From Hadesarchaea archaeon (GTDB lineage: Archaea; Hadarchaeota; Hadarchaeia; Hadarchaeales; JAGGTB01): a stretch of 56,683 nucleotides of DNA. Every line of letters begins with the position of its first letter. The stretch's first letter is position 1. Where the stretch lies: the NCBI GenBank assembly GCA_021163965.1, contig JAGGTB010000028.1, positions 1 to 56,683 on the forward strand, in the 5' to 3' direction. Below the pieces are notes generated by a model. It saw only the letters and a program-made list of their open reading frames with translations, had not been told where the DNA came from and made no database searches. The position numbers were made by a program, and so were the translations under genes. This document shows, in pieces, positions 2,414 through 55,508 of the stretch.

Positions 2414-5400
2414 TTATCTGAGACGTCTCAGAAGAAGCTTGAACCTCTCGCCCTCGATGTTCCACTCCTTGGTGTAGCCTTCTTCTCCTACTTCCTCCAC
2501 GCGGACGACTCTCAGTTCCTTTATCCTAACTTCGCGTTTCAGATATTCCTCCTGGGTCTTTAGAAGCCGAAGGTCCCTTTCGCTGTCGGTGCCGATCACT
2601 ACATCCACGCGTTCTTCCATTTCCAAGTCCATATCCTTCCGCATCATTTGAAGTCTCCTCACGATTTCCCTGGCCAAGCGTTCCGCCATCAGCTCGTCGG
2701 TCAACGTCGTGTCCACTATCACTTCCCCAAACTCCGTATTCGCCACTACGTATTCCTCGGGGAATTGGTCGAGCTTCAGATCTTCCGCCTGAACTTGGAT
2801 TTGTTGTCCCTCTATCTGGAGCCCCACGAAGCCCATACGTTCCACTTCCCCGCGAACGCTTTCGACTCTCATACGTCTTAGGACGTCCCTGATCCTAGGT
2901 GCGAGATTCCCGAACTTCCTAGATATCGAGTCGAGATTCACCTCACACACGGGGCGCAATTCCTCGTCTTTCTCCCCGGGGGCAAGTGCCCTGAGCTCCT
3001 TTGCGTTCAGTTGGTGTTTAAGTACGTGCTCCAGCCTCAGCACCGCTTTCTTCGCCCGCTCCGAGGATGCCCTAATAAAGACTCTGCGGACTGGCCACCT
3101 GAGCCTGAGCCCCGCCTTCTGACGTGCTGTTGCTCCTCCCTCGAAGAGCGCACGCACTATCTTCATATCTTCCTCAAGCTGCTTGTCTATCCATTTTTCA
3201 TCAACTTCTGGCCACCGGTGGAGATGCACGCTCTCGGGTTCAGACGGGTCCGCCGCTCTTATTAGGCCTAGATACATTGCCTCCGTGATGTGCGGCATCA
3301 CGGGGGCGAGGAGCCTAAGGAGGACGTGCAGGACCCGGTACAAAGCCGCGTAGGCCGCCTTTTTCTTCAGATTCTCACTCTCGATCCAAGTTCTAGGCCG
3401 CACGAGCTTCACGTACCACCTGCTTAGATCCTCCAGCACGAACGACTGGAGGGCGCGCGTCGCAACGTGTAAGTTCAGCCCCTCAAAGGCGGTCGTGACC
3501 TCTTTCGTCAGGGTATTTGCGCGGGAGATTATCCACCTATCCTCGGGCTCTAAGCTATCGCGAAGTTCCTCCAGACTGGCCGCGGTGGGGTCGAATTTGT
3601 CGAGGGACATGTAGGTTGTTGCAAACACGTAGACGTTCCACAGGACGTTGAGCATGCGGTTTACGACCTCCACTTCCTTCCAGTTGAACCTCAGGTCCTC
3701 CCACACTGGGTTCGCCGAGAGCAAGTAGAATCTCAGAACGTCGGCGCCGTATTTTTCCACGACTTCGAGCGGGTCGACGACGTTCCCGAGGGATTTCGAC
3801 ATCTTCCTACCCTCGGAATCCAGCGTAAACCCGTGCATTAGCACGCATCTGTAGGGAACCTCATCAAATGCTATTATCGACGTGACCTGTTGACCGTAGA
3901 ACCACTTGGTCACCTGGTCCTCGCCCTCGGTGATGAAGTCACTTGGCCAAAGGCGCTCGAACCTGTCTCGTCTCATCGGATACCCTAGGCTCGCCCAGGA
4001 GCAGACCCCGGAGTCGAACCAAACGTCAAGCACATCCGGTATTCGCCTCATCTCGCCTCCACACTTCGGACAACGCAATTTGACCTTGTCAATATTTGGT
4101 CTGTGAAGGTCCTCCTCCGGAATCTCGCCGATAGCCAAGTCCGCTAGCTCTCTCCTACTGCCGATGACTACTTCGTGAGCACAGGTGCTACAAACCCATA
4201 TCGGTAGCGGTATACCCCAGTATCTCTGTCTGGAGATGCACCAGTCCCCCGTGGACTCCACACCATTCTGGTAGCGCTCCGCTACCCAGCCCGGAACCCA
4301 CTTCACGTTCGCGGAGTTCTTCTCCAGAATCCTGGGTTTGATTTTCGAGACCTGCAGGAACCACTGCTCTGTCGCGCGGAAAAGGAGGGGAGTCTTGCAA
4401 CGCCAGCAGTGGGGGTAGGAGTGGTGGATGGTTCCCTCCTTCATGAGCACCCCTTTTGCCTTTAGATCCTCCAAAATCACACGATCTGCGTCCTTCACGA
4501 ACATTCCCGAGTACTTTCCAGCCTCGGGGGTAAACCTCCCGTCTGGGCCTACGGGGCTAAAGACCGGCAGGTTGTAGGCTTTCCCGACCTCGAAGTCCTC
4601 CTCCCCATGTCCGGGAGCGGTGTGAACGCAACCGGTTCCTTCCTCCAGCGTCACGTGTTCACCGCAGATGATCCGGTGGTGATCTCTGAACTCCATTTGC
4701 TTGGGAACCTCCTGAAGCAATGGGTGCTCATAGCGGAGTCCCTCCAGCTCCTTTCCCTTCACTAGGTCAACTATTCGATAGTCGCGGATGTCCAGCTCCT
4801 CCATAACTCTCGAAACCAAGGCCTCCGCCATTATGTAGACATCGTCCCCGACCGCTACCTTCGCATAGTAGAACTCCGGGTGGACGCATACGGCAATGTT
4901 CGCTGGCAGAGTCCATGGAGTTGTCGTCCATATCAGGATGTACTCATTCGGCGATTGTTCAAGCTTGAATCTAGCATAAAGCGAGGGGTCGCTCACGTCG
5001 CGGTACTCGCCGCGGACTTCGTGCTCGGCCAGTGCGGTTTCGCAGCGCGGACACCACTGTATGACCCGGAGATCCTTCTGCATCAGTCCCCTCTCATGGG
5101 CCCGCTTCAGCGTCCACCAGACGGATTCAATGTAGTCATCGGTGAGGGTGAGGTAGGGCTTATCCCAATCCATCCAAACCCCCAATCGCTTGAACTGATT
5201 GGTCATCATCTCGACGTGGGTTAGGGCCCAGCGCTTGCACTCGCCGATGAAGCGGTCGATCCCTATCTCCTGCTCGATGTCCTTCTTCGTCCTGATCCCG
5301 AGGCTCTCCTCCACCTTGACCTCGATTGGTAGTCCGTGGCAGTCCCACCCCGGCTGACGGTGCACGTTAAAGCCGCACATGCTTTTGTACCGCAGGATCG

Positions 5401-6275: not shown

Positions 6276-7244
6276 TTGGTCGCCCAGGAGATTTGGGTTG
6301 AAAAATACCGTCCGAAGAAGCTGGCCGACATCGTCGGACAAACGGAGATCACGGAACGTTTAAGGATCTTCGTCAAGGAAAAATCGCTACCACACCTTCT
6401 ATTTGCTGGTCCCGCAGGGACGGGAAAAACCACAGCTGCCCTCTGCATAGCCCGCGAACTCTTCGGAGAAGGATGGCATCAAAATTTCTTGGAACTGAAT
6501 GCGAGCGATGAGCGGGGGATTAACACCATCCGAACGAAAGTCAAGGATTACGCTAGAACTATGGCGATAGGCGACGTACCTTATAAAATAATTTACCTTG
6601 ACGAGGCAGATGCGTTAACTCCAGAGGCACAACACGCCCTCCGCAGGACTATGGAGATGTACTCGCAGACGTGTAGGTTTATCCTAGGTTGCAACTACTC
6701 GAGCAAAATCATCGAACCCATCCAATCGCGGTGCGCCGTCTTCCGCTTCAGACGCTTAGGCAAGAAGGACATCGCCAACGTGCTCAAGAAAATAGCCAAG
6801 AGCGAAAACTTGAGGTTGACCGATGGGGCGATAGATGCGATAGTGTACATCTCAGAGGGGGATATGCGCAGGGCCATCAACATCCTCCAAGCTGCCTCCG
6901 CCACCGCGAAGGAGATCACGGAGAAGACGATATACGATGTGAGCGCCACGGCACATCCGGAGGAGGTCAAGGAGATGATAAAGCTCGCTCTAGATGGGAA
7001 GTTTGAAGAGGCTCGGGAGAGGCTCTTGAACCTCCTGATAGGTCGGGGACTCGCGGGGGATGATATCCTTATGCAGATCCACCGCCAGATACTTGACCTG
7101 GACCTTCCCGAGCTGGTGAAGGTAAAGCTCGTCGACCGGATGGGGGAGTTTGACTTTAGGCTCACGGAAGGGGCGAACGAGAGGATTCAGCTCGAGGCCG
7201 CGCTGGCTCATCTCACCTTGCTCGGAAGTAGGCTCAGGAGCTAG
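6276..7244 (+). CDS. rfcS: Replication factor C small subunit
   Basis: WVEKYRPKKLADIVGQ, Walker A GPAGTGKTT, DEAD-like LDEADALT, and SRC motif (IQSRCAVFRF). TTG start preceded by a GGTGGTGAG SD-like sequence. Confidence 0.95.
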   Translation: MVAQEIWVEKYRPKKLADIVGQTEITERLRIFVKEKSLPHLLFAGPAGTGKTTAALCIARELFGEGWHQNFLELNASDERGINTIRTKVKDYARTMAIGDVPYKIIYLDEADALTPEAQHALRRTMEMYSQTCRFILGCNYSSKIIEPIQSRCAVFRFRRLGKKDIANVLKKIAKSENLRLTDGAIDAIVYISEGDMRRAINILQAASATAKEITEKTIYDVSATAHPEEVKEMIKLALDGKFEEARERLLNLLIGRGLAGDDILMQIHRQILDLDLPELVKVKLVDRMGEFDFRLTEGANERIQLEAALAHLTLLGSRLRS

Positions 7245-13948: not shown

Positions 13949-14161
13949 TTGGGAAGAATTCTCGAAATAAAGGTTGTTCCGAATTCCCGAGTCGAGAAGG
14001 TAATTAAGGAAGAGCCGATAATAGTGAAAGTGAGGGATCCCCCGGAAAAAGGAAAAGCGAACAAAGCCGTCATTAAGCTACTGTCAAAGTATTTCGGCTC
14101 CAAGGTGAGGCTCATCGCGGGGAAAAGGTGCAGGAAGAAACTCGTAGAAATTGTCGAATGA
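13949..14161 (+). CDS. DUF167 / YggU-like (UPF0235) protein
   Basis: 70 aa. LEIKVVPNSRVEKV...VKVRDPPEKGKANKAVIKLLSKYFGSKVRLIAGKRCRKK fits the GKAN-containing DUF167 pattern. Confidence 0.7.
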   Translation: MGRILEIKVVPNSRVEKVIKEEPIIVKVRDPPEKGKANKAVIKLLSKYFGSKVRLIAGKRCRKKLVEIVE

Positions 14162-14176
14162 TGGATCCTCGGTAGA

Positions 14177-14434
14177 GGTGACCTCCTCCCCACGCTTTCG
14201 CACGGGGCTTCCGACTTTTCCTTCCGTTACCCCCACATCGCCTCGCTTCGGGGAACGTTTTGCCGGAAGCCTCTGGGAGCTTCCTGCTTCATCCACCGGA
14301 CTCGATCCCCGACGCGCGGGTCATCGGTTTCTCACAGGCGTTCGGTTCGGGGTGGCCGAAGAAATCGGCATGGAGGGAAATATACGGTTTTCGGCCCTCA
14401 TCCCCGCCCTCACGGAAGGGGACTCCCCGCCGAC
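14177..14434 (-). ncRNA. Unclassified structured RNA candidate, copy 1 (paralogue of 32182-32414)
   Basis: Homologous to a second locus in three collinear blocks separated by hairpin-forming expansions. One stem shows a compensatory change. GNRA-capped hairpins and G-U pairs appear only on the minus strand. A conserved TTTAAC lies just upstream (14435-14443 on the plus strand). Weaker similarity extends to about 14161. Confidence 0.5.
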
Positions 14435-14492
14435 AAAGTTAAAAACTATGGGGTAATCTAAACATTGACTATAAAGTTCAGTTGGTGTTAAC

Positions 14493-15401
14493 ATGCAGCG
14501 CAGAACCGAAGAAATCTTTGCAAAATGCGGAACTGAGCGGTTGAAGCGCAGTTTTGCCAAGGTGGAAAAGGGCGGCGTGATAATGGACGTCACTACCCCC
14601 GAAGAAGCCAGAATTGCGGAGGAAGCGGGAGCCGTCGCCGTTATGGCCCTACATGCCGTGCCAGCTGACATCAGAAAGGCCGGCGGAGTCGCGAGAATGG
14701 CCGACCCAGCGAAGATCAAGGAGATAATGGACGCGGTCACCATCCCCGTCATGGCGAAGTGTAGGATCGGGCACTTTGCGGAGGCCCAAATCCTCGAGGA
14801 GCTGGGAGTCGACATGGTCGATGAATCTGAGGTCCTGACCCCAGCGGATAGGGAATTCCACGTAGACAAGCACAAGTTCAGGGTTCCATTCGTGTGTGGC
14901 GCTAGGGATCTGGGCGAGGCACTCAGACGTATCAATGAGGGGGCTGCAATGATACGAACAAAAGGTGAGGCTGGCACCGGAAATATCGTGGAGGCCGTGA
15001 AGCACATTAGGTTAACCCTCAAGCAGATTAGGGAACTCCAAGATCTCGGGAAGAGGGGGCTCGAGGAGAAGGCCCGGGAGTACAGGGTTCCGGTGGAACT
15101 CGTCGAGGAGGTGGCGAGACTCCAGAGGCTTCCTGTAATCTGGTTCTGCGCCGGTGGGATAGCTACTCCGGCAGACAGTGCTTTGGTGATGCAATTCGGC
15201 GTGGATGGGGTATTTGTGGGGTCCGGGATTTTCAAATCTGAGGATCCTCCAAGGATGGCGAGGGCAATTGTGGAAGCCACTAGACACTACGATGATCCCA
15301 AGGTGCTGCTCGAGGTAAGCAAGAACCTACCGGAGCCCATGCGCGGGATAGATGTAGACTCCCTCAGGCCCGAGGAGCGAATGCAGACGCGAGGCGTGTA
15401 G
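14493..15401 (+). CDS. pdxS: Pyridoxal 5'-phosphate synthase subunit PdxS
   Basis: 302 aa with [41 protein letters not shown] ... [10 protein letters not shown] ... [14 protein letters not shown], a textbook PdxS/SNZ sequence. No pdxT is adjacent. Confidence 0.95.
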
Positions 15402-25726: not shown

Positions 25727-26683
25727 ATGAAGGGAGTCGTGGTGAATGGTGTGGAGGAAATAGAAAAGTTACAGGGAATCGGGCCGGCAATCGCGGAAAA
25801 GCTTCGTTCTTCCGGTTACGACACGCTTGAGAGCATAGCTGTCGCGACTCCTGTGGAGCTAAGCGAGGCGGCCGAAATCGGGGCAAAAACGGCAATACAG
25901 ATAATAAGAGCCGCTCGGGAGCAGGCGGATATGGGGTATGAGAAGGCGACGGAAATCATGGAGCGGCGCAAGAGTGTTGGTCACATCTCGACGGGAAGCA
26001 ATAATCTCGATGAGGTTCTCGGTGGAGGGGTGGAGACCCAAGCGATAACTGAAATCTTCGGGGAGTTCGGGTCCGGGAAGACCCAACTTGCGCACCAGCT
26101 CAGCGTCAACGTGCAGTTGCCCGAGGAGAAAGGAGGTCTCGGTGGAAAAGTGCTCTACATAGATACGGAGAATACCTTCAGGCCTGAGCGGATAGGTCAA
26201 ATGGCTAGGGCAGTCGGTTTGGACCCTGGGGACGCGCTGGAGAATATATATGTGGCACGAGCTTACACGACCGATCATCAGATGCTCTTGGCCGAAAAGG
26301 CGGGGGAGTTGGTCAAGGAGAATTTTGTGAAACTGATTGTCGTCGATGCGTTGATGTCGCTCTTCCGAACGGAGTACTGTGGTCGCGGGGAGCTTGCGGA
26401 GAGGCAACAGAAGCTCGGAAGACACCTCGCGACGTTGCACAAGCTTGCGGAGTTGCATAACCTAGCGGTTTTTGTGACGAATCACGTACAGTCTAAGCCA
26501 GATGTATTCTTCGGGGATCCAACCCGCCCGGTAGGGGGGCACGTGCTCGGACACTCGGCGACAGCTAGGATATACCTGCGGAAGAGCGAGAAAGGCTCGA
26601 GAGTTGCAAAACTTATAGATCATCCGGCACTACCTCCAGAGAGCGCTAGGTTCTACATTTGCAAGGAAGGGATTCGCGACTAG
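25727..26683 (+). CDS. radA: RadA recombinase, paralogue 1
   Basis: 318 aa. N-terminal HhH domain ([26 protein letters not shown]), Walker [10 protein letters not shown], Walker [17 protein letters not shown] is present, but NHVQSKPD replaces the usual NQV. Confidence 0.92.
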
Positions 26684-31420: not shown

Positions 31421-31588
31421 TGGAGTCGCTTTCGCTCGTTTTTTAGGGGACTTTCTGTCCTATTTAACTTTACCACAAGAACGGTAATTTGCTACTCTTT
31501 ACCCTGTTACTAATTTCAGACCCCTTTTCCATTGATACGGCGGATACGGTTTTTCCATACATCTATACCTGAGAATCCGGCCGGGGAA

Positions 31589-31963
31589 TTGTTATATATA
31601 TAACAACGATTTCGTCCAGCGCCAAAATTTTTCATCGATGCTGCAGCGACTGATTTACACATCTCGGAAATCGATCCCTCGAAATCGCTGTTAAACAAAT
31701 CCTGTTGGGGTTCAAACCTCTCGTCCAGCCCCCGCCACGTGGATTCGAAACCCCCGCGTTAGTAGTTCCTCAATCGTTGTTATATATCCAATCGCCAATC
31801 GTTGTTATATATATAACAAACGTCGCCCGCATAGCCCCCTTTATTTTGTTACACGTGTAACAAAAAGTTCCGGATTGGAAATTCCACCGGCGCCCCACCT
31901 CCCGAACCGTCAATCCGAATCGCAGATATCCGTGATGCCGTGGATTTGTTATATATATAACAA
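31589..31963. repeat. Array of TTGTTA-N6-TAACAA palindromes in a gene-free region
   Basis: Perfect 18-bp TTGTTATATATATAACAA occurs at 31589-31606, 31802-31819 and 31946-31963. TTGTTACACGTGTAACAA occurs at 31846-31863. A half-site TTGTTATATAT lies at 31777-31787 inside a tandem CAATCGTTGTTATATAT duplication. Confidence 0.9.
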
Positions 31964-32181
31964 ATGCCCACGGACTGTTCTTCTTTTAGGCTGGAAAAAA
32001 TAAGAACGGAAATCGAAACGGTCCAATCTTTTTCTTTTTTTGACTCTAGGAAGCATAGCACCGCATTATGGTACCTAAGATTTGAAAAATGTTGAAAGAC
32101 TGGACAAATATTGGGAGCGCATGGTGGGAACATAAAAGACGGAAATCGCTGAAATGTTCTAGATGATCCGTCATCGATAAG

Positions 32182-32414
32182 GGTGACCTCCTCCTCATGC
32201 TTCCGCACGGGGCTTCCGACTTTTTTCCCTGTTACTCCCACATCGCCTCCGCTTCGGGGAGCGTTTTGCCGGGAGCCTCTGGGAGCTCCCTGCTTCATCC
32301 ACCGGACTCGATCCCGCCCCCCTTCGGGCGGTTACGGAGGTCCGATGTCCAGCCTACCCGCGCCGCGCAGGTCATCGGTTTCCCACAGGCGACGGACGGG
32401 GACTTCCCGCCGAC
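32182..32414 (-). ncRNA. Unclassified structured RNA candidate, copy 2 (paralogue of 14177-14434)
   Basis: Same three conserved blocks as copy 1, with a ~48-nt expansion at a different site. Terminal hairpin CCCCGUGC-GGAA-GCAUGAGG on the minus strand. The same TTTAAC lies immediately upstream (32415-32423 on the plus strand). Confidence 0.5.
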
Positions 32415-32465
32415 AAAGTTAAATTATCTCCCGCCATCGACTTCTCTGAAAACGGAGGAGGCGGA

Positions 32466-33734
32466 ATGAGGACATCTCGGATTCCCGGGTTTTACAAGCT
32501 GAGCGTTGATGAGAGGCTTGAGAGGGTGAAGGAGTTCGCTGGGCTTACGGATGAGGAGGTCGAGCTGCTCCGCAGGACCGGGGCATTGGAAATCGAGCAG
32601 GCGAACCGCATGGTAGAGAACGTGGTGGGAACCACGGAGCTACCTCTTGGAATCGCGACCAACTTTCTCATCAATGGTAGGGACTATCTCGTGCCCATGG
32701 CGATAGAGGAGCCCTCGGTAATCGCCGCGGCATCTAACGCCGCTAAGATGGCGCGAGAGAGGGGAGGGTTCCAAGCGGAGAGCACGGATCCGATAATGAT
32801 AGGACAGATCCAGCTCCTGGGAGTAAGGGACCCATACAAGGCGGAGGAGGTCATCCTCTCGAACAAAGAGGAGATAATCAAAATAGCGAACGAGCAGGAT
32901 CCCCTTCTAGCTAAGCTGGGAGGAGGGGCAAGGGACGTCGAGGTAAGGATCCTTGACTCCCCTGCGGGCCGGATGATCGTGGTTCACCTGCTAGTCGACA
33001 CGAGAGATGCTATGGGTGCGAACATCGTCAATACGATGGTGGAGGCGGTAAGTCCATTTATTGAGCGGATAGCTGGCGGGGATGCGCACTTCAGAATAGT
33101 CTCCAACCTCGCCACCCGAAGGCTCGCCAGGGCGCGGGCAGTCTTCGCCAAGGAGGCAATAGGGGGGGAGGAGGTCGTTGACGGGATACTCCAGGGATAT
33201 GCGTTCGCCGTCGCCGACCCCTATCGTTGCGCGACGCATAACAAAGGGGTGATGAACGGGGTGGTTGCTGTTGCCTTAGCAACGGGCAACGACAGCCGTG
33301 CGCTGGAAGCTGGAGCTCATGCTTATGCCGCCCGCAGCGGGAGATACCAGCCGCTTACACGTTGGGAGAAGAACGAGGATGGGGATCTTGTGGGGGAGAT
33401 CGAGCTCCCGGTTGCCGTTGGCATAATAGGTGGGGCAACGGGGGCACATCCAGTTGCCAAGGTGAGTCTTAAGATCCTCGGGGTAAAAACCGCTCGGGAA
33501 CTCGGGGAGGTCATGGCCGCTGTCGGGCTGGCGCAGAACTTCGCGGCGATGAGGGCAATTGCAGTAGAAGGGATCCAGCGAGGGCACATGAAGCTTCACG
33601 CCCGAAATATAGCCGCTATGGTGGGCGCCAGGGGGGAGACGATCGATAGAGTCGCGGAGCAACTGGTTAGGGAGGGAAGGATAAGAGCCGACCGAGCGAA
33701 GGAGATCCTCGAGGAGCTACAACGCCGAGGGTAG
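32466..33734 (+). CDS. hmgA: HMG-CoA reductase, class II-like
   Basis: 422 aa, soluble. [13 protein letters not shown]...[41 protein letters not shown]...[10 protein letters not shown]...[10 protein letters not shown] resembles the class II (Pseudomonas/Archaeoglobus-type) enzyme rather than the usual archaeal class I enzyme. Confidence 0.9.
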
Positions 33735-33787: not shown

Positions 33788-35878
33788 GTGCTTGCGGAAT
33801 ATCCATCGGGGCTTGGGTTGAGCACGAATTTTGACGATATCGTGCGGAAAATTCTGGAGAAAACGGGCTTGGATCGCAACGAACTTATGGCCCGCATACG
33901 CAGGAAACAGGAAGAACTCAGCGGCTTTATTACCCCGGAGGGCGCAGCGGCGATAGTGGCGCGCGAGTTTGGTATAGTCCCAGAGAGGAAGATTCCCGAG
34001 GTTCGGAAGCTGACGATCAGCGACTTGAGCCCGGGAATGTCAAACGTCGATATAGTAGCCCGCGTTGTTCGGGTCTATGAGCCTAGAGAATTCGAGCGCA
34101 GGGATGGGTCTAAAGGACAAGTCGCTAGCGTGATTCTCCAAGATTCCACCGGTCAAATCCGGGGGGTTCTCTGGGACAAGCACGTGTCTCTAATAAAAGA
34201 AAATAAAATCCGGAAAGGGGTGTCGATACGCGTTTGCGGTGCCTATGTGAAGCATCGGCAGAATGGGCCCCCAGAACTCAACCTAGGTCTAAGAAGTTCC
34301 ATAGAGATTAACCCGGATGATCCCCGAGTGGAGGAGCTCCCGGAACTCCCAGAGAGTAAGGCTAAAATAGCCGATCTGAAGCCGGATTTGAGCGATGTCG
34401 ATGTAGTCGGGCGCGTGACCGCGGTCTCTGGGCCCAAAACCTTTGAGCGTCCAGATGGATCCATTGGAAAGGTAGCGAGCGTGATGCTCATAGACGGAAG
34501 CGGTCAAACGCGCGTTTCACTTTGGGATGAGAAAGCCGAGGTAGTTGGAAAAATCAAGCCCGGCGACGCTGTGAAGCTTGAGAACGCGTACGTTAGGAGC
34601 GGATGGCAGGACAAACCAGAACTTCACGTCGGGCGCCGTGGTCGCATCATATTGAACCCCGAGGATCCGGAAGTCAACGAGCTTCCGAAGGTCGAAAGGC
34701 GCCTGTTGAAGGTTGGGGAAATTGAAGTAGATATGCCGACGCTCGATGTCGCGGCGAAAGTGGCTCAGAAGTTTCAGCCCCAAGAATTCAGCCGCGATGA
34801 TGGCTCATCTGGAAAGGTGATGAATGTAATTCTGGCCGACGAAACAGGTTCGATTCGCGCGTCCTTCTGGGATGATATGGTCGACGAGGCCCAGAAGTTA
34901 CGGGTCGGCGATGTTGTTCTACTGAGGAATGCGAGATCGCGCGAGGGCTTGGGTGGACAACCGGAAATCCGGGTTGGTCGGGGCACTGATGTCCAAGTAA
35001 ACCCCGAAGGAATTAGCGTTGGGGAGCCTAGGCCAAGTTTGGTTGAGATCTCCGAACTCGAGCCAGGGATGAATGCATTCCAGGTATTGGGGAGGGTCAT
35101 CGAAGTCTCAGGGTCGAGGGATTTCACAAGGTCTGACGGGAGCAAGGGACGGGTGGCCTCCATGGTTCTGGCAGACCGAACCGGATCCACTAGGGTTTCG
35201 CTGTGGCATGATAAGGCCGGTTTGGTTGACGGGGTCAAGGTTGGCGACGTTATTAGACTGAGCAATTGTTATAGCACGGCGGGGCTCTTCGGCGAAGTTG
35301 AGGTGCACCTCGGAAGGCAGGGCGAGATGGAAGTGAATCCACAAGTCGAAGTGGAGTTGCCACCTGTGGACGTGTTGAAGGCCTTGGCTAGGCCAGAGCA
35401 GGTGGAGATAGGTTCCATCAAAGAGGAGGGAAAGAACGTCCGAGTACGTGGTACCATAGTGAAGGTATTCCAGAGGCGCCCGATATTTGATGTTTGCCCA
35501 GAGTGCGGCAGGAACCTTGGAAGCGTCGATTCGAACCTTCTCTGCGAGGAATGCGGGAAGGTGGTCACTCCGGAGCACAGGGTGGTACTAAGTTTCACGA
35601 TCGACGACGGGACGGGGAACATCCGCGCTATATTGTTTGGGAAAGTTGGGGAGCAACTCCTAGGAATGGGTGCGCAAGAGGTCTTCGAGAAGTTCAGGGG
35701 AGCTTCGAGCTTGTCGGAACTCTATGAAGAGTTCGACCTTCTCGGGCGGGAAATAGTTCTTATCGGGATAACCCGCCGAAACAGGCTATTGGGCGAGCTC
35801 GAGATAGTGGTTCGGGAGGTCGCGATCCCGAATCCCAAGGAGGAAGCCATGAGGTTGTTGGGAAAAATTAAAGCGTAA
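33788..35878 (+). CDS. rpa: Replication protein A (single-stranded DNA-binding), four OB folds plus zinc ribbon
   Basis: 696 aa. Contains four repeats of the pattern V..V....R.F.R.DGS.G.VASV.L.D.TG..R..LWD and a C-terminal CPECGRNLG...CEECG. The start is uncertain (GTG at 33788 or TTG at about 33818). Confidence 0.85.
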
Positions 35879-35879
35879 T

Positions 35880-36854
35880 GTGCAGAAAGTAGAGGTGGAG
35901 ACGGAGTTGTCCGAAGAATTTCGGCGGCTGCTGAGCTTGCCCGGCGTGGGGGAGGCCACAGCTGAGAGGCTCCGGGAAGCGGGATATGAAACAGTCGAGT
36001 CTGTCGCTGTTGCGAGTGTGGATGAGATTTGTGAGGCGGTTGAGATAGGCAAGATGCAAGCCAGGCGCATAATTGAGGCCGCCCGGAAGGCCGCGGAAAT
36101 AGAGGACTTCGTGACGGCTGATAAAGTTCTCGAGAAGAGAAAAAATGTGGGCTGGATCACTACGGGCAGTAGCCAGCTCGATTCCCTCTTTGGTGGGGGG
36201 GTGCAGACTCAAGCGGTTACCGAGGTATTTGGGGAGTTCGGATCTGGGAAGACCCAACTCGCGCACCAGCTCAGCGTCAACGTGCAGTTGCCCGAGGAGG
36301 AAGGGGGACTCAATGGTAAGGCCATCTTCGTTGACACGGAGAACACTTTCAGACCCCGCAGGATAATAAGTATGGCTAAGGCCCGCGGGCTTGATCCGAG
36401 CGAGGCGCTTCGCAATATATTTGTCGCCAGAGCTCGCACTACTGACCGTCAGCTGCTGATAGCCGAAAAGGCCCAGGAAGTGGTGGAGAAGGAGAACGTG
36501 CGCCTGTTGGTGTTTGACACCTTGACTTCACTTTTTAGAGCGGAATTTATAGGAAGGGAGACGCTAGCTGCACGCCAGCAAAAGCTCGCTAGGCATCTCT
36601 TGACCCTCCACAGGATAGCTGATCTTTACAACGTGGCGGTCTTCGTCACAAATCAGGTGCAGGCTAGGCCTGATTTGTTCTTCGGAGATGCTACGCGTCC
36701 CATTGGTGGGCATGTGCTCGGACACTCAGCGACCACGAGGATTTACTTTAGGAAGTCTAGGGGAAATAAGCGCATCGCGCGGGTAGTCGATAGTCCCGAG
36801 TTGCCGGAGGGTGAGTCGGTATTTGTAATCACGGAAGAGGGGATTAGAGACTAA
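35880..36854 (+). CDS. radA: RadA recombinase, paralogue 2
   Basis: 324 aa. The GTG start lies 1 nt after the rpa stop. HhH domain ([26 protein letters not shown]), Walker [10 protein letters not shown], Walker [24 protein letters not shown] replaces the usual ARAYxxxHQ. Confidence 0.9.
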
Positions 36855-51224: not shown

Positions 51225-53379
51225 CACTTCCAGCCTGCAAAGCTTTACTTTGCAGGTGTCGGGCAAAATTGCACGTTTGGTGCAAGATGATTGCCATGCA
51301 TAGGTCCATCCTCCAGCGCCAGCCGAACTAGGGATCAGTAGGAACTGGCACGCTAAGCCACTTGGGGGATGGCTCGGCTCGGGCGCCGAGGAAGGTCGTG
51401 ACAAGCTGCGATAAGCCCGGGCGAGGTGCACGTAGCCTTTGAACCCGGGATCGCTGAATGGGACTTCCTGGCGCGATAAAATCGCGTCGTTCGCGGTAGC
51501 GAACGGGAACCCCGGGAACTGAAACATCTTAGTACCGGGAGGAAAAGAAAGCAAATGCGATGCCCTGAGTAGCGGCGAGCGAAAAGGGCACAGGGCAAAC
51601 CGAACCTGGTGGGGAAACCCACTGGGGATGTGGGGTTGCAGGACCCGATCGCCATCTCCCCAGGGAAGCCGAAGTCCCCTGGAAAGGGGCGCCATAGAGG
51701 GTGATAGCCCCGTAGGCGCAACCTGGGAGGTGTTGGATCGGGTATCCTGAGTACCGTGCCTTGGTATTGGCGCGGGAAGCTGGGAGGCACCAACTCCCAA
51801 CCCTAAATACGTCCCGAGACCGATAGCGAACGCAGTACCGTGAGGGAAAGCTGAAAAGTACCCCGAAAGGGGGGTGAAAAGAGCCTGAAACCAAGTGGCG
51901 ACAGTTGGACATGGCTCGAAAGAAATGATTCTCCCCAAAGGAAACCACGGCGACGTGGAAGTACGAGGGGAGAGGATCGGGGTCATGTCGTCCGTTTAGA
52001 AACACGGGCCAGGGAGTTCACTGCCGTGGCGAGGTTAAGGAGTTCACCTCCGGAGCCGCAGCGAAAGCGACATGCCCACAGCCCCGTATGGGGTGAGGGG
52101 CGGGGTGTGAAAGCGCCCGAAGTCACGGCAGTGAGACCCGAAGCCGGGGCGATCTAGCCCGGGGCAGGGTGAAGCCGACCTCCGGGTCGGTGGAGGCCCG
52201 AACCGGTCTTGATGTGCAATTCAGTCGGATGACCCTGGGCTAGTGGCGAAAGACCAATCAAGCCCGGCGATAGCTGGTTCCCCCCGAAGCTGGCCGCAGT
52301 CAGGCCCAGCGCGAGGTTGCCAGCGGTGTAGAGCACTGATTGGTGAGTGCGGGGGGAAACCCTCGGCTCACCTGTCAAACTCCGAAGCCGCTGGCGCTGT
52401 AGACCGCTGGAGTTAGGGTGCGGGGGGTAAGCTCCCGCCCCGAGAGGGGAACAACCCAGACCAAGGTTAAGGCCCCTAAATGCCGGCTAAGTGTCAAACC
52501 AAAGGGCGTCTTCGTCCTTAGACAGCGGGGAGGTAGGCTTAGAAGCAGCCATCCTTTAAACAACGCGTAAAAGCGGACCCGTCGAGGGCGAAGGCCCCGA
52601 AAATGGACGGGGCTTAAGCCGGCTGCCGAGACCTTGGGGCAGGCGAAGTTTAGTAGCCTGATCCGGTAGGGGGGCGTCCTGCGAGGGCAGAAGCGCGGCC
52701 GTGAGGTCGCGTGGACCTCGTAGGAATGAAGATCCTGGCGGTAGTAGCAGCGAAGTGGGGTGAGAATCCCCACCGCCGAAGGGGCCCGGGTTCCTCGACG
52801 ATGTTCATCAGTCGAGGGTTAGTCGGTCCTAAGGCTACCCTCAACCAGAGGTAGCCGAAAGGGAAACCGGTTAATATTCCGGTACCGCCCAAGTACCTGC
52901 GGCAACGCAAGCTCGGCTCCTGACGCTCAGGGGTACGCCGAGCAGGGCCGTCGCCCTGTCTAACCGTGCAAGCCCGGGGAGTGCCGTAATGGCGAGAACC
53001 GGGTGAACGCGGGAATGGCTCGCCTAAGGCGAGTTCGGCGGAGCCCTAGAGCCCGTGAAAAGGGAGCCGAGAATTGGGATCTTGGGCGACCGTACCTAGA
53101 TCCGACACAGGTGCCCCTAGGTGAGTAGCCTAAGGCGTGCCGGGGGATCCCAGGCTAGGGAAATCGGCAAACTGGCCCCGTGCCTTCGGTCGAAGGGGTG
53201 CCTGCCATGCGGATGGCAGGTCGCAGTGACCAGGGGGGGCCGACTGTTTAATAAAAACGTAGTTAACCGCTAGCCCGAAAGGGTGTGTACGGTTAATGAA
53301 TCCTGCCCAGTGGAGGTACGTGAAGCTGGAGTCCAATCCAGCGAAGCGCCTCTAAACGGCGGGGGTAACTATAACCCTC

Positions 53380-54232
53380 GAGTAGGGGGTTGTAAAACCC
53401 GGCTGTATGCGGGGAAGAGTTGAAAATGCGGGCTACCCTTTGGGTAACAAAGCCCGCGTTTGGTGATCTCGACCCGCAGGAAACCCCGGAGAGCTAGAAA
53501 AGCATAATTTAGCAAAGCGTAACAAAGTCCCTCTTAAGGGAACAGAATGTCGCTGGCTTACTTGGTGGGCGTCATGCTGGGTGACGGTGGCGTCTACGGA
53601 AACACGTATACAGTTTTCTGTAGGGACGGGGACAAAAGGTTCGTGCAGTGGTGTGCGGAGAGGGTCAGGGAAATCTTTGGGATCCAACCGAGAATTCACA
53701 AAGCAGCCCCGAACTGTTGGGCCGTCAGCACGAACAGGGCGGAGATTCACCAATTTATGTGCAAGCTCGGATATCCAAAAGGACGAAAATCGACCGCTGC
53801 CAGGATCCCAGAGATTTTTCTGAGGAGTAGAAGTGACAGGATCGATGTCGTCAAGGGGCTATTCGATGCCGAGGGGTATTGTGGAATTGACAGGCAAAAA
53901 CACGGGAACAAGGTCTATCGGTATCCCTACGTGGGCATTGATATGATAGCGAAGCCAGTAATTAAAGAAGTAAGAAAAATTCTTGGAGAACTTGGCATCA
54001 GTTGTAGCCTTCAAGTCAAGAAACCTCGCGCGTGGGGAAAAAATCCGCAGTGGTCCTTGGTGGTCAAAGGACACGGCGGAGTAGCAGAGTTCGAGAAAAA
54101 AGTGGGGTTCAGGCATCCAGCGAAATCAGCGCGTTTAGAAGAGCTCGTTGAAGGGGGATCCTCAGAGACCATACGCTGGGCGCCCTAGATAGGGCGATGA
54201 TATGGTCCACCCTTCTCCAATGAGGAGGGAGC
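53380..54232 (+). mobile_element. Archaeal-type rRNA intron in 23S domain IV carrying a homing endonuclease gene
   Basis: Removing 53380-54232 restores the universal AACCCUC|UUAAGGUAGCG. The exon-1 end CCCUC can pair with GAGGG at the intron 3' end, as expected for a bulge-helix-bulge site. Boundaries are accurate to about 1 nt. Confidence 0.85.
53547..54188 (+). CDS. LAGLIDADG homing endonuclease (double-motif, monomeric type)
   Basis: 213 aa with two dodecapeptide motifs, LAYLVGVMLGDGGV and VVKGLFDAEGYCG. Lies entirely within the 23S intron. Confidence 0.9.
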   Translation: MSLAYLVGVMLGDGGVYGNTYTVFCRDGDKRFVQWCAERVREIFGIQPRIHKAAPNCWAVSTNRAEIHQFMCKLGYPKGRKSTAARIPEIFLRSRSDRIDVVKGLFDAEGYCGIDRQKHGNKVYRYPYVGIDMIAKPVIKEVRKILGELGISCSLQVKKPRAWGKNPQWSLVVKGHGGVAEFEKKVGFRHPAKSARLEELVEGGSSETIRWAP

Positions 54233-54865
54233 TTAAGGTAGCGAAATGCCTTGCCGCTTAATTGGCGGCTCGCATGAATGGATCAACGAGCCCCCCGCTG
54301 TCCCAGCCTGGGTCCCGGTGAACCCACTGGCTGGCGCACATGCCAGGGACCCCCGAAGGGAAGCGAAGACCCCGTGGAGCTTTACTGCAGCCTGTCGTTG
54401 GAGTGCGGCTGTGGGTGTAGAGCGTAGGCGGGAGCCTTGGAAGCCGGGTCGCCAGGCCCGGTGGAGGCGCCAATGTAACACCGCCCTCCCGTAGCTGTGC
54501 TTCTAACCGCTTCGGCGGGACAGCGGCAGGTGGGCAGTTTCGCTGGGGCGGCAGCCTCTCGAAAAAATATCGAGAGGGCCCAAAGGTCGGCTTAGGCGGG
54601 TCAGAAATCCGCCGTCAAGGGCAAGGCCAGAAGCCGGCCTGACTGCGTCCTCACCAACGGAGGACGCAGGGGCGAAAGCCGGGCCTAGCGAACCTCGGTG
54701 TCCCTCTTGGTGAGGGCCCGAGATGACAGAAAAGCTACCCCGGGGATAACAGAGTGGTAGCCTGCGAGAGCCCATATCGACCAGGCTGCTTGCTACCTCG
54801 ATGTCGGTTCTCCCTATCCTGGCCGTGCAGCAGCGGCCAAGGGTGGGGTTGTTCGCCCATTAAAA

Positions 54866-54904
<39 letters not shown>

Positions 54905-55397
54905 AGATGCTATCTTTCGGGGGTGTTGGGTGCCTGAGGGGAAGGTGGCCTTAGTACGAGAGGAACAGGCCGCCGGCGCCTCTGGTGTACCGGTTGTCCG
55001 ACAGGGCAGAGCCGGGCAGCTACGCGCTAGCCGATAAGGCCTGAAAGCATCTAAGGCCGAAGCGGCTCCCGAAAATAGGCACCCATTCCCGACATGCCGA
55101 AAGGCACCGGGACCGGTGACGGTCACGGTTGTCGGGACGAGGACCGAGGCCAGAAGACCTCGTTGATAGGCCGGGGGTGTAAGCACGGAGCTTCGGCGAC
55201 GTGTTCAGCCCGCCGGTACTAATCGTCCGAGGTGCCAGTTCCCAAAGTCCCTAGCTCGGGCGATTCTGGGGATGGACCTATGCATGGTTTTCTTTTTTGT
55301 GTTGTTGGGGCGCAACGATGCCCAACTTTCCCACCGGCGAAAAGCGGAGCGGGATTCCAAAATCGTTAAGAGGTTTTAAGATTGGGATTAGAATGGT

Positions 55398-55508
55398 GGG
55401 CCCATAGCTCAGCGGTAGATTGGGTCTAAACCCAAGCCGAAAGCGCCGCCTTCGCATGCGCTCCGGAAAAGGCGGAGGTCGCGGGTTCAAATCCCGCTGG
55501 GTCCACCA
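55398..55508 (+). tRNA. tRNA-Ala (CGC) with two introns, CCA encoded
   Basis: Hand fold. Acceptor GGGCCCA/UGGGUCC with G3:U70. The D arm is interrupted after GCUC-AGCGGUA-GA by 23 nt (55420-55442). Anticodon stem CCGCC/GGCGG has loop UUCGCA + A, interrupted by 13 nt at the canonical 37/38 site (55457-55469). T arm GCGGG-UUCAAAU-CCCGC. Confidence 0.8.

Follow-up and report, generated by a model that had tools for sequence, protein, structure and literature searches.

Two repeated intergenic loci of a Hadesarchaeon are probably tnpB-less IS200/IS605-type elements ending in a TnpB ωRNA-like scaffold

Introduction

What are two homologous, gene-less loci doing 18 kb apart on the same strand of an archaeal contig? 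The contig (JAGGTB010000028.1 of assembly GCA_021163965.1, from a Hadesarchaea archaeon of the order Hadarchaeales) is 56,683 nt long and is called here, at its full length, the window. Its minus strand carries the two loci at 14178–14443 (copy 1) and 32183–32423 (copy 2), both counted with a TTTAAC hexamer at the 5′ end. An initial annotation, made from the sequence without database searches, described them as a diverged pair of an unclassified structured RNA. We conclude, with a probability of about 0.85, that both loci are damaged, tnpB-less derivatives of the IS200/IS605 family, IS1341 type, resembling palindrome-associated transposable elements (PATEs) or miniature inverted-repeat transposable elements (MITEs), and that their right end is an expanded TnpB ωRNA scaffold.

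Results

Two homologous loci

14178–14437, minus strand: copy 1, putative gene-less IS200/IS605-type element, 260 nt from left to right end (alignment A2; R1, 120.8 bits)
14438–14443, minus strand: TTTAAC at the left end of copy 1, candidate insertion target or TnpB transposon-adjacent motif (TAM)
32183–32417, minus strand: copy 2, the same element, 235 nt, with a different internal deletion (alignment A2; R1, 115.4 bits)
32418–32423, minus strand: TTTAAC at the left end of copy 2

The homology proposed by the initial annotation lies far above chance. The loci share an identical 21-mer, GAGTCCGGTGGATGAAGCAGG (shuffle expectation 0), and self-BLAST of the window aligns 14139–14309 with 32143–32315 (85% identity, E = 1.6e-47) and 14412–14443 with 32392–32423 (94% identity). 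R1, a covariance model of the 3′ half of the family, scores 120.8 bits on 14178–14308 and 115.4 bits on 32183–32314, and a search of the window with R1 gave no third copy. Pairwise alignment reproduced the three collinear blocks of the earlier description, whose arithmetic proved approximately right: the 3′ block spans ~131 nt with seven substitutions and two small indels, the middle block 31 nt with three substitutions and the 5′ block 31 nt with two, leaving private sequence of 71 nt in copy 1 and 45 nt in copy 2. All hairpins quoted earlier are present (GCCGA-UUUCU-UCGGC, CCGCCC-N6-GGGCGG and the 8-bp terminal hairpin with its GAAA or GGAA loop), as are the compensatory stem (GGAAGC/GCUUCC in copy 1, GGGAGC/GCUCCC in copy 2) and the TTTAAC immediately 5′ of both copies.

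A right end shared with TnpB loci

14178–14207, minus strand: right-end terminal hairpin CCCCGUGC-GAAA-GCGUGGGG and tail AGGAGGUCAC, copy 1 (motif in at least 118 loci)
32183–32212, minus strand: right-end terminal hairpin CCCCGUGC-GGAA-GCAUGAGG and tail AGGAGGUCAC, copy 2
14319–14341, minus strand: ωRNA core motif 1, ACGCCUGUGAGAAACCGAUGACC (enrichment of GCCTGTGG; present in loci L136 and L137)
14283–14308, minus strand: GGAUCGAGUCC hairpin and ωRNA core motif 2, GGAUGAAGCAGG (CCUGU/GCAGG long-range helix; enrichment of AAGCAGGAA)

Genomes, one per species, were scanned for the terminus with the pattern GGAANCCCC-N10–14-GRGGAGGAGGTCA. The motif occurs in at least 118 loci, compared with about five estimated by chance. 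Among the matches listed are loci from Actinomycetota, Cyanobacteria, Patescibacteria, Pseudomonadota, Halobacteria, Thermoproteota, DPANN and other lineages, many of them at contig ends; when these matches are oriented, similarity always ends directly after GGTCA. An open reading frame (ORF) of at least 250 amino acids ends just upstream in 40 of the 119 matches listed. Six of seven upstream ORFs scanned against Pfam encode TnpB (PF07282 in all six, PF01385 and PF12323 in most); the exception, at L052 beside a relative of the window RNA, is a DUF790 gene and unrelated. In the terminal hairpin, the four free base pairs are paired in 91% of cases versus 48% in shuffles (maximum 57%), and across the matches listed the loop is mostly UUCA or UUUA.

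The likeness extends beyond the terminus. Upstream of the terminal hairpin, GCCTGTGG was found in 10 of 82 regions from other lineages and AAGCAGGAA in 14 of the 82, versus 0 of 75 controls for each, and in TnpB-linked loci of several phyla both lie at fixed distances from the hairpin. In TnpB tails the two core motifs read 'ACG' and 'KQEP'. GCCUGUGG and GAUGAAGCAGGAA are conserved TnpB-tail/ωRNA motifs that occur in the same order in the window RNAs; the canonical GAUGAAGCAGGAA was seen in L067 and L136–L138, and the core motifs are also present in the intact TnpB relatives L136–L138. Moreover, R1 finds a full-length match, of 44.9 bits, in the tnpB-linked locus L055. Because of the enrichment and order of the motifs, together with this full-length match, we infer that the body of the window RNA, and not just its shared tail, is an expanded ωRNA core. 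The scaffold runs from ACGCCUGUGG through variable hairpins, GGAUGAAGCAGGAA, two helices and the terminal hairpin, and closes at the transposon boundary with the tail AGGAGGUCAC; the window type has in addition a module of ~85 nt (helices He and Hf) that ends in GGAGGAGGUCAC. What was called an unclassified RNA can therefore be assigned to the TnpB ωRNA/IS200-IS605 right-end class by its terminus, its core motifs and the HgcC signal described below.

Ends of the IS200/IS605 type

14402–14421, minus strand: H1, left-end subterminal hairpin CCCCUUCC-GUGA-GGGCGGGG (covaries across members)
14378–14393, minus strand: candidate B recognition element (BRE)/TATA box, CGAAAACCGTATATTT (CGAAAACC-GTATATTT), deleted in copy 2

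Hallmarks of IS200/IS605 elements are similar subterminal hairpins, a short left-boundary motif and the lack of terminal inverted repeats or target duplication (PMC10055086). The left end of the window element consists of 16 nt followed by the subterminal hairpin H1, the 3′ half of which is missing from copy 2. TTAAC, mostly as TTTAAC, directly precedes all 10 readable left ends, which come from Hadesarchaea, a Methanomethylicaceae metagenome-assembled genome (MAG) and metagenomes, and the right end is GGTCAC in every member but L124. Across the other family members the flanks are unrelated on either side, and neither a flanking direct repeat or target-site duplication nor terminal inverted repeats are present. 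The left hairpin (GGAAGU-CCCC...GGGG-AUGAG, H1) resembles, when judged by eye, a right-hand one (GGAAG-CCCC...GGGG-AGGAG, Hf), and the terminal-hairpin part of R1 also matches H1 at L012 2561–2592 and L121 3528–3561. In the model-derived structure, GUGG 5′ of the terminal hairpin pairs with the terminal UCAC. This GUGG/UCAC pair fits an IS608-style tetranucleotide rule at the right end; no convincing partner for TTAAC was found at the left.

The initial annotation took TTTAAC for a TATA-like box. As TTAAC precedes all ten readable left ends and the sequence farther upstream is unrelated, the hexamer is more likely a transposon target site or TAM than a promoter element. A better promoter candidate, judged from sequence, is the BRE/TATA-like box inside the element: an A/T-rich, TATA-like block after H1 is kept in all full-length members (A2 columns ~52–70).

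Relatives and internal deletions

The nearest relatives found by BLAST, among the matches listed, are six copies or copy ends in a single Methanomethylicaceae MAG (L001, L012, L027, L052, L086 and L102), and BLAST against the terminus-bearing loci gave a further relative in another Methanomethylicota MAG (L063); none of these loci has an adjacent tnpB. Scanning metagenomes with the subfamily core added L119/L123, L120, L121, L122 and L124. The element is thus present in multiple copies: six copies or copy ends in the Methanomethylicaceae MAG, several of them at contig ends, three in metagenome Ga0190286 and two in the window. Scans of viral contigs with core and terminal patterns did not find the family.

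Alignment A2, which sets copy 1 beside eight other members, gives a family consensus of ~330 nt. Comparison of the two copies with nine further members also recasts what had been described as two expansion sites: they are two different internal deletions of the consensus, and they arose independently. The deletion in copy 1 removed a 45-nt internal segment; from the L124 variant it can be seen to lie between two ACCCGC repeats. Missing from copy 2 are ~95 columns of A2, among them the 3′ half of the first hairpin, and with them the candidate promoter and the pre-core hairpin; this copy keeps the entire ωRNA core, with helices Hc, Hx and Hy. No conserved ORF lies within the element, 171 of 213 relative indel lengths are not multiples of three, and substitutions have no 3-nt phase, so that the codon-like conservation named by the initial annotation as evidence against a structured RNA is not seen. 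Comparison of either copy with TnpB proteins by blastx found no significant relic of a tnpB C terminus.

Two side observations concern other terminus-bearing loci. Archaeoglobaceae have gene-less elements of their own, of ~250 nt (L099 1600–1884 and L046 3922–4180), whose body resembles the ωRNA region (L055 7400–7697) inside an intact tnpB of Ca. Alkanophaga; they provide another, independent example of ωRNA-bearing derivatives that lack tnpB. At L090 (uncultured archaeon CAZJBU010000032.1, ~3580–3980) lies a CRISPR array with the repeat GTTTAAAGCAGACATGAGATGGATTGAAAG and a 37-nt spacer, GTGGAAGCCCCTTGCGATAGCGAGGGGAGGAGGTCAC, that nearly matches the last 37 nt of the subfamily and differs from L052 at two loop bases. 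Since the spacer ends exactly at the transposon terminus, a CRISPR system has captured the right end of this element.

A decaying tnpB between family ends

One metagenomic relative, L123, links these ends to a tnpB gene. On its minus strand, TTTAAC, the family left end and H1 (~8003) are followed by a decaying tnpB, which has lost its N-terminal part and contains one in-frame stop while its RuvC-III motif, DRDVNAAKNIL, is intact; the family body and GGAGGAGGTCAC come next, at 6317. In intact homologues of this TnpB (65–72% identity, for example from Hydrothermarchaeales) the 3′ end is compact and of the canonical form, ACGCCUGUGGAG-hairpin-GAUGAAGCAGGAA-hairpin-GGUAGUUCAC; hairpins resembling H1 occur at the left ends of L137 and L138. 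L124, which is short and gene-less, ends in GUAGUUCAC, like the compact canonical ωRNAs of the L123 TnpB homologues.

The termini of these two loci have further features. At L123 6303–6316, 5 nt beyond the GGAGGAGGTCAC end, lies GTAGTTCAC, a terminus of the type found in related compact tnpB elements, and at L124 1640–1690 the GUAGUUCAC end has a tRNA gene ~130 nt further downstream. Both suggest nested or tandem insertions, which would explain the two-module 3′ region of the window type.

A structured RNA on the minus strand

14229–14283, minus strand: helices Hd (GAAGC/GCUUC) and He (GUUCCC/GGGGGU), with compensatory changes between the copies and among members

Five helices vary in ways that preserve pairing. 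H1 alternates between GUCC/GGGC and UUCC/GGAA, Hc among CCCGC/GCGGG, CUGGC/GCCAG and CCUUC/GAAGG, and Hd between GAAGC/GCUUC and GGAGC/GCUCC; He has U-A or G-C at its third position, and Hf has at least five stem variants. The putative long-range helix CCUGU/GCAGG is invariant across members, and a candidate pseudoknot, GACCUCC/GGAGGUC, is either invariant or ambiguous among the 14 sequences aligned. In a model-based alignment of 14 distinct sequences, which itself favors the structure of the model, 93.9% of cells are paired versus 86.4% after shuffling (reached in 0 of 500 shuffles) and 39–59% with slid partners, and there are double changes at six pairs. The covariation score of the alignment is 0.253 versus 0.121 in shuffles (again reached in 0 of 500). 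The covariation and the GNRA loops, which form on the minus strand, support a structured RNA on that strand, and here the pairing statistics and the table of helices bear out the initial annotation.

Relation to known RNA families

At the gathering score, Rfam models match the window at rRNA and tRNA alone, and so the database check proposed with the initial annotation places neither locus in a curated family. With permissive filters, HgcC (RF00062) is the sole family to appear in both copies; its minus-strand matches score 16.8 bits (E = 0.15) and 13.6 bits (E = 1.1) and span three helices and the GGAGGAGGUCA tail. HgcC has been noted to contain the "RE-like tetraloop" (RE, right end) of IS1341-type tnpB 3′-end transcripts and of a PATE-derived RNA of Halobacterium (PMC4615843), and tnpB 3′-end transcripts, known as sense overlapping transcripts (sotRNAs), are now named ωRNAs (PMC12558985). 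The models for signal recognition particle (SRP) RNA, RNase P RNA and sotRNA gave no match in either copy at E ≤ 10 with permissive filters.

Could the loci be divergent members of HgcC, or of the archaeal SRP RNA that the initial annotation was reminded of? That HgcC is the best Rfam match of both copies speaks for the former, as do shared features: a terminal hairpin with the GGAGGAGGUCA tail, helices upstream of it, and occurrence in thermophilic archaea as high-GC RNA. The window RNA, however, is about twice as long, has another loop and other internal helices, and scores far below the gathering score of 50 bits. Likewise, 18 archaeal loci that share this terminus give no hit with the HgcC model, and we therefore regard HgcC proper as a narrower family that has the terminal module alone in common with them. 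The resemblance to SRP RNA finds no match to lean on, either at the gathering score or at E ≤ 10. Membership in either family is thus extremely unlikely. An outright equation of HgcC with TnpB ωRNA was also considered, and was dropped when the HgcC model found none of the 18 archaeal terminus loci.

The sotRNAs of haloarchaeal IS1341 tnpB (RF02656 and RF02657) belong to the same class of transcripts from the tnpB 3′ end or right end (PMC12558985), but their models give no match to the window RNAs even at E ≤ 10. The likeness to TnpB ωRNA, also called right-end RNA (reRNA), of IS200/IS605 and IS1341 elements lies in GCCUGUGG, GAUGAAGCAGGAA, the terminal hairpin, the short tail at the transposon boundary and the strand, which is the tnpB sense strand; the flank would serve as guide. 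Unlike these RNAs, the window RNA overlaps no tnpB ORF and has insertions between the conserved motifs, and its function with TnpB is putative.

Homology past the right end

14158–14177, minus strand: 3′ flank of copy 1, CUCUACCGAGGAUCCAUCAU, would-be guide segment by analogy with TnpB ωRNA (PMC10055086); overlaps the DUF167 stop codon on the opposite strand
32118–32182, minus strand: 3′ flank of copy 2, weakly homologous to the 3′ flank of copy 1 and the DUF167 C terminus

Copy 1 lies between genes for a DUF167 protein (13949–14161) and PdxS (14493–15401), and copy 2 between L21e with a 760-nt gap and HMG-CoA reductase (32466–33734); the copies are 44–50 nt upstream of pdxS and of the HMG-CoA reductase gene. 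The loci had been described as flanked by unrelated genes. Their 5′ flanks are unrelated; on the 3′ side, a weak homology runs ~40–65 nt past the terminus into the DUF167 3′ end. Anchored at GGTCAC, the first 20 nt are identical at 13 positions (P ~ 3e-4), and local alignment extends over ~65 nt (P ~ 0.01). The copy 2 flank translates as ...EHKRRKSLKCSR*, to be compared with ...GKRCRKKLVEIVE* at the DUF167 tail, with a likeness of ...KRRKSL... to ...KRCRKKL.... Other family members diverge right at GGTCAC.

From these alignments, copy 2 was probably copied from the copy 1 locus, with a precise left end and with read-through at the right end that took in the DUF167 3′ sequence. The shared flank has diverged by ~35–40% and the 3′ half of the element by ~8%, a gap that may reflect constraint on the core or else gene conversion.

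The flank similarity also bears on the idea that the loci are a domesticated guide or regulatory RNA, derived from an ωRNA, that works with a TnpB or TldR-type protein encoded elsewhere and keeps its similar 3′ segments as a fixed guide. The 13/20 identity directly after the scaffold, the conservation of the core relative to the flank and the position of both copies 44–50 nt upstream of housekeeping genes would be expected of such an RNA. Against it, 13 of 20 is too diverged for a common guide, the guide-position sequences of all other members are wholly different, and a similarity that continues for ~65 nt and looks like the DUF167 tail points to carried-along DNA. In the window, no target of the would-be guides lies next to a TAM, the donor sites alone match them, and no TnpB-like gene is nearby; the element is also absent from related species. 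We regard a domesticated guide RNA as highly improbable.

Absence at the syntenic site

Contigs of the same species from several samples all carry copy 1. In related Hadarchaeales, PdxS is 83–87% identical and the gene order fibrillarin-Nop5-radical SAM-pdxS is kept, and their radical SAM/pdxS spacers (35–155 nt) contain neither the element nor DUF167. Since relatives lack the element at the corresponding site, the two loci behave like copies of a mobile element, not like a conserved pair of paralogous RNA genes.

The DUF167 gene itself lies between radical SAM and pdxS in this species only (compared with L131 and L133–L135), and the relatives' genes almost abut. On this comparison, DUF167 and the element together look like a lineage-specific acquisition at the radical SAM/pdxS spot.

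The view of the initial annotation, in its strongest form, is that the host encodes an unclassified family of structured noncoding RNA, with two paralogues each transcribed from a TATA box TTTAAC. It agrees with the failure of any Rfam family to reach threshold, with the minus-strand covariation and GNRA loops, and with a core that is far better conserved between the copies (~8% divergence) than the adjoining flank. Absence at the syntenic site argues against it, as do a terminus and core motifs common to TnpB-linked right ends in many phyla, the IS200/IS605 end architecture with its constant TTAAC, the multiple copies at contig ends in a Methanomethylicaceae MAG of a different phylum, the decaying tnpB that the same ends bracket in L123, and the different large internal deletions in the two copies. 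We consider a host-encoded RNA family very unlikely.

Discussion

Several observations weigh against identifying the loci as tnpB-less IS200/IS605-type elements. The homology of the two copies past the right end is unlike simple independent insertions. The 56.7-kb window contains no tnpB or tnpA (tblastn of TnpB proteins against it found nothing), and a partner acting in trans is assumed. Among homologues of the L123 TnpB, we did not find a clean autonomous parent with the exact body and end, and no TnpA was found; the intact relatives end in GGUAGUUCAC and lack the 3′ module of the window type, for which reason the arrangement in L123 may be composite or nested. Curated Rfam membership fails, HgcC included (16.8 and 13.6 bits versus a 50-bit threshold), and single-sequence folding energies are not better than those of shuffles (z = −1.0 and −0.8 on the minus strand, about 0 on the plus strand). 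Finally, the exact empty site was not recovered from contexts with identical or 83–87% identical PdxS: the related species have neither the element nor DUF167, and the same-species contigs all carry copy 1, so the exact junction cannot be read and, formally, TTAAC may belong to the element as its initial bases instead of flanking it as a target.

If the loci are elements of this kind, are they still active? They may be pure fossils, transposon debris that is neither mobilized nor used as RNA and whose conserved structure reflects recent common ancestry. The internal deletions in both copies, the loss of the left hairpin and candidate promoter from copy 2, the lack of tnpB and tnpA in the window, the fact that the sole tnpB found between these ends is a pseudogene, and the unexceptional folding energy all fit. 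Less easily explained are the 3′ half, which is ~8% diverged with changes that preserve pairing (G-C to A-U, C-G to U-G) beside a flank diverged by ~35–40%, and copy 1, which keeps both ends and a promoter-like box and is retained in same-species contigs from several samples. That both copies are nothing but debris is a real possibility, though less likely than not. The copies may also differ in this respect. Copy 2, with half of its left hairpin and its candidate promoter missing, is almost certainly immobile and is most likely a fossil. Copy 1 has lost a 45-nt internal segment and, by analogy with known elements, could still be mobilizable and expressed, since both ends and the promoter-like box are kept.

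How would such an element work? By analogy with IS200/IS605 elements and PATEs and the peel-and-paste/homing model (Meers et al.; PMC10055086), a Y1 TnpA supplied in trans would move the element as single-stranded DNA and insert it 3′ of TTAAC. Transcription could begin from the BRE/TATA-like box after the left hairpin, starting just before the ωRNA core, and the guide of the ωRNA would be the ~16–20 nt of flanking DNA after GGUCAC. Loss of a copy would leave the junction of TTTAAC with CTCTACCGAGG, and an excision circle would join GGTCAC to TTTGTCGG. A TnpB made elsewhere would, together with the ωRNA, cut the TTAAC-adjacent empty site, and recombination would then restore the element.

It is also conceivable, if very unlikely, that the element has become a stand-alone ωRNA gene with its own promoter, kept under purifying selection with an enlarged two-module scaffold, and that it programs a TnpB or nuclease-dead TnpB-like protein encoded elsewhere near the promoters of pdxS and HMG-CoA reductase. 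Hadesarchaea would then have a natural "orphan guide RNA" system that acts in trans.

The closest known counterparts of the probable tnpB-less elements are PATEs, gene-less elements that "often encode ωRNAs", which TnpB uses in trans (PMC10055086); our comparators are those of Geobacillus (Meers et al., 2023; PMC10055086) and VNG_R0052 of Halobacterium (Gomes-Filho et al., 2015; PMC4615843). Like PATEs, the window elements are gene-less, have a left end fused to a right end, similar subterminal hairpins and a left-boundary motif, and occur in multiple copies; their right-end part corresponds to a TnpB ωRNA, and TnpB would be needed in trans. They differ in their hosts, Hadesarchaea and Methanomethylicaceae, and in a long body (~330-nt consensus) with extra hairpins and an apparent second terminal module; their loops are GNRA instead of the UUCA/UUUA tetraloop, and no cognate TnpA or intact TnpB was found.

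The element type is thus already known, and the loci reveal no new mechanism. They extend the host range of gene-less, ωRNA-bearing elements to Hadesarchaea and a Methanomethylicaceae MAG, and they suggest that high-GC structured intergenic repeats of thermophilic archaea, HgcC included, can be recognized as derivatives of TnpB ωRNAs or IS200/IS605 right ends by GCCUGUGG, then GAUGAAGCAGGAA, then a hairpin with GGAGGAGGUCA. The long, hairpin-rich scaffold variant from thermophiles, with TTAAC/TTTAAC as its candidate TAM, could be of interest in mining for TnpB.

Other features of the window

The 760-nt gene-less gap beside copy 2 (31421–32182) is AT-rich, with a GC content of 43%, compared with 54% for the window, and it contains three exact copies of an 18-bp palindrome, TTGTTATATATATAACAA, at 31589, 31802 and 31946 (0 expected), as well as the variant TTGTTACACGTGTAACAA. 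Its role may be regulatory or like that of a replication origin.

The 23S rRNA match (51341–55242) is 3,902 nt long, versus 2,987 positions in the model, which implies ~900 nt of insertions, possibly one or more introns; inverted repeats at 51294–51351 and 55232–55287 flank it and look like a processing stem. The length of a tRNA match at 55398–55505 (108 nt) likewise implies an intron. A direct repeat of 567 nt with 70% identity, presumably from paralogous genes, links 26021–26584 with 36192–36755, the latter copy lying just beyond an OB-fold-rich ORF at 33788–35878.

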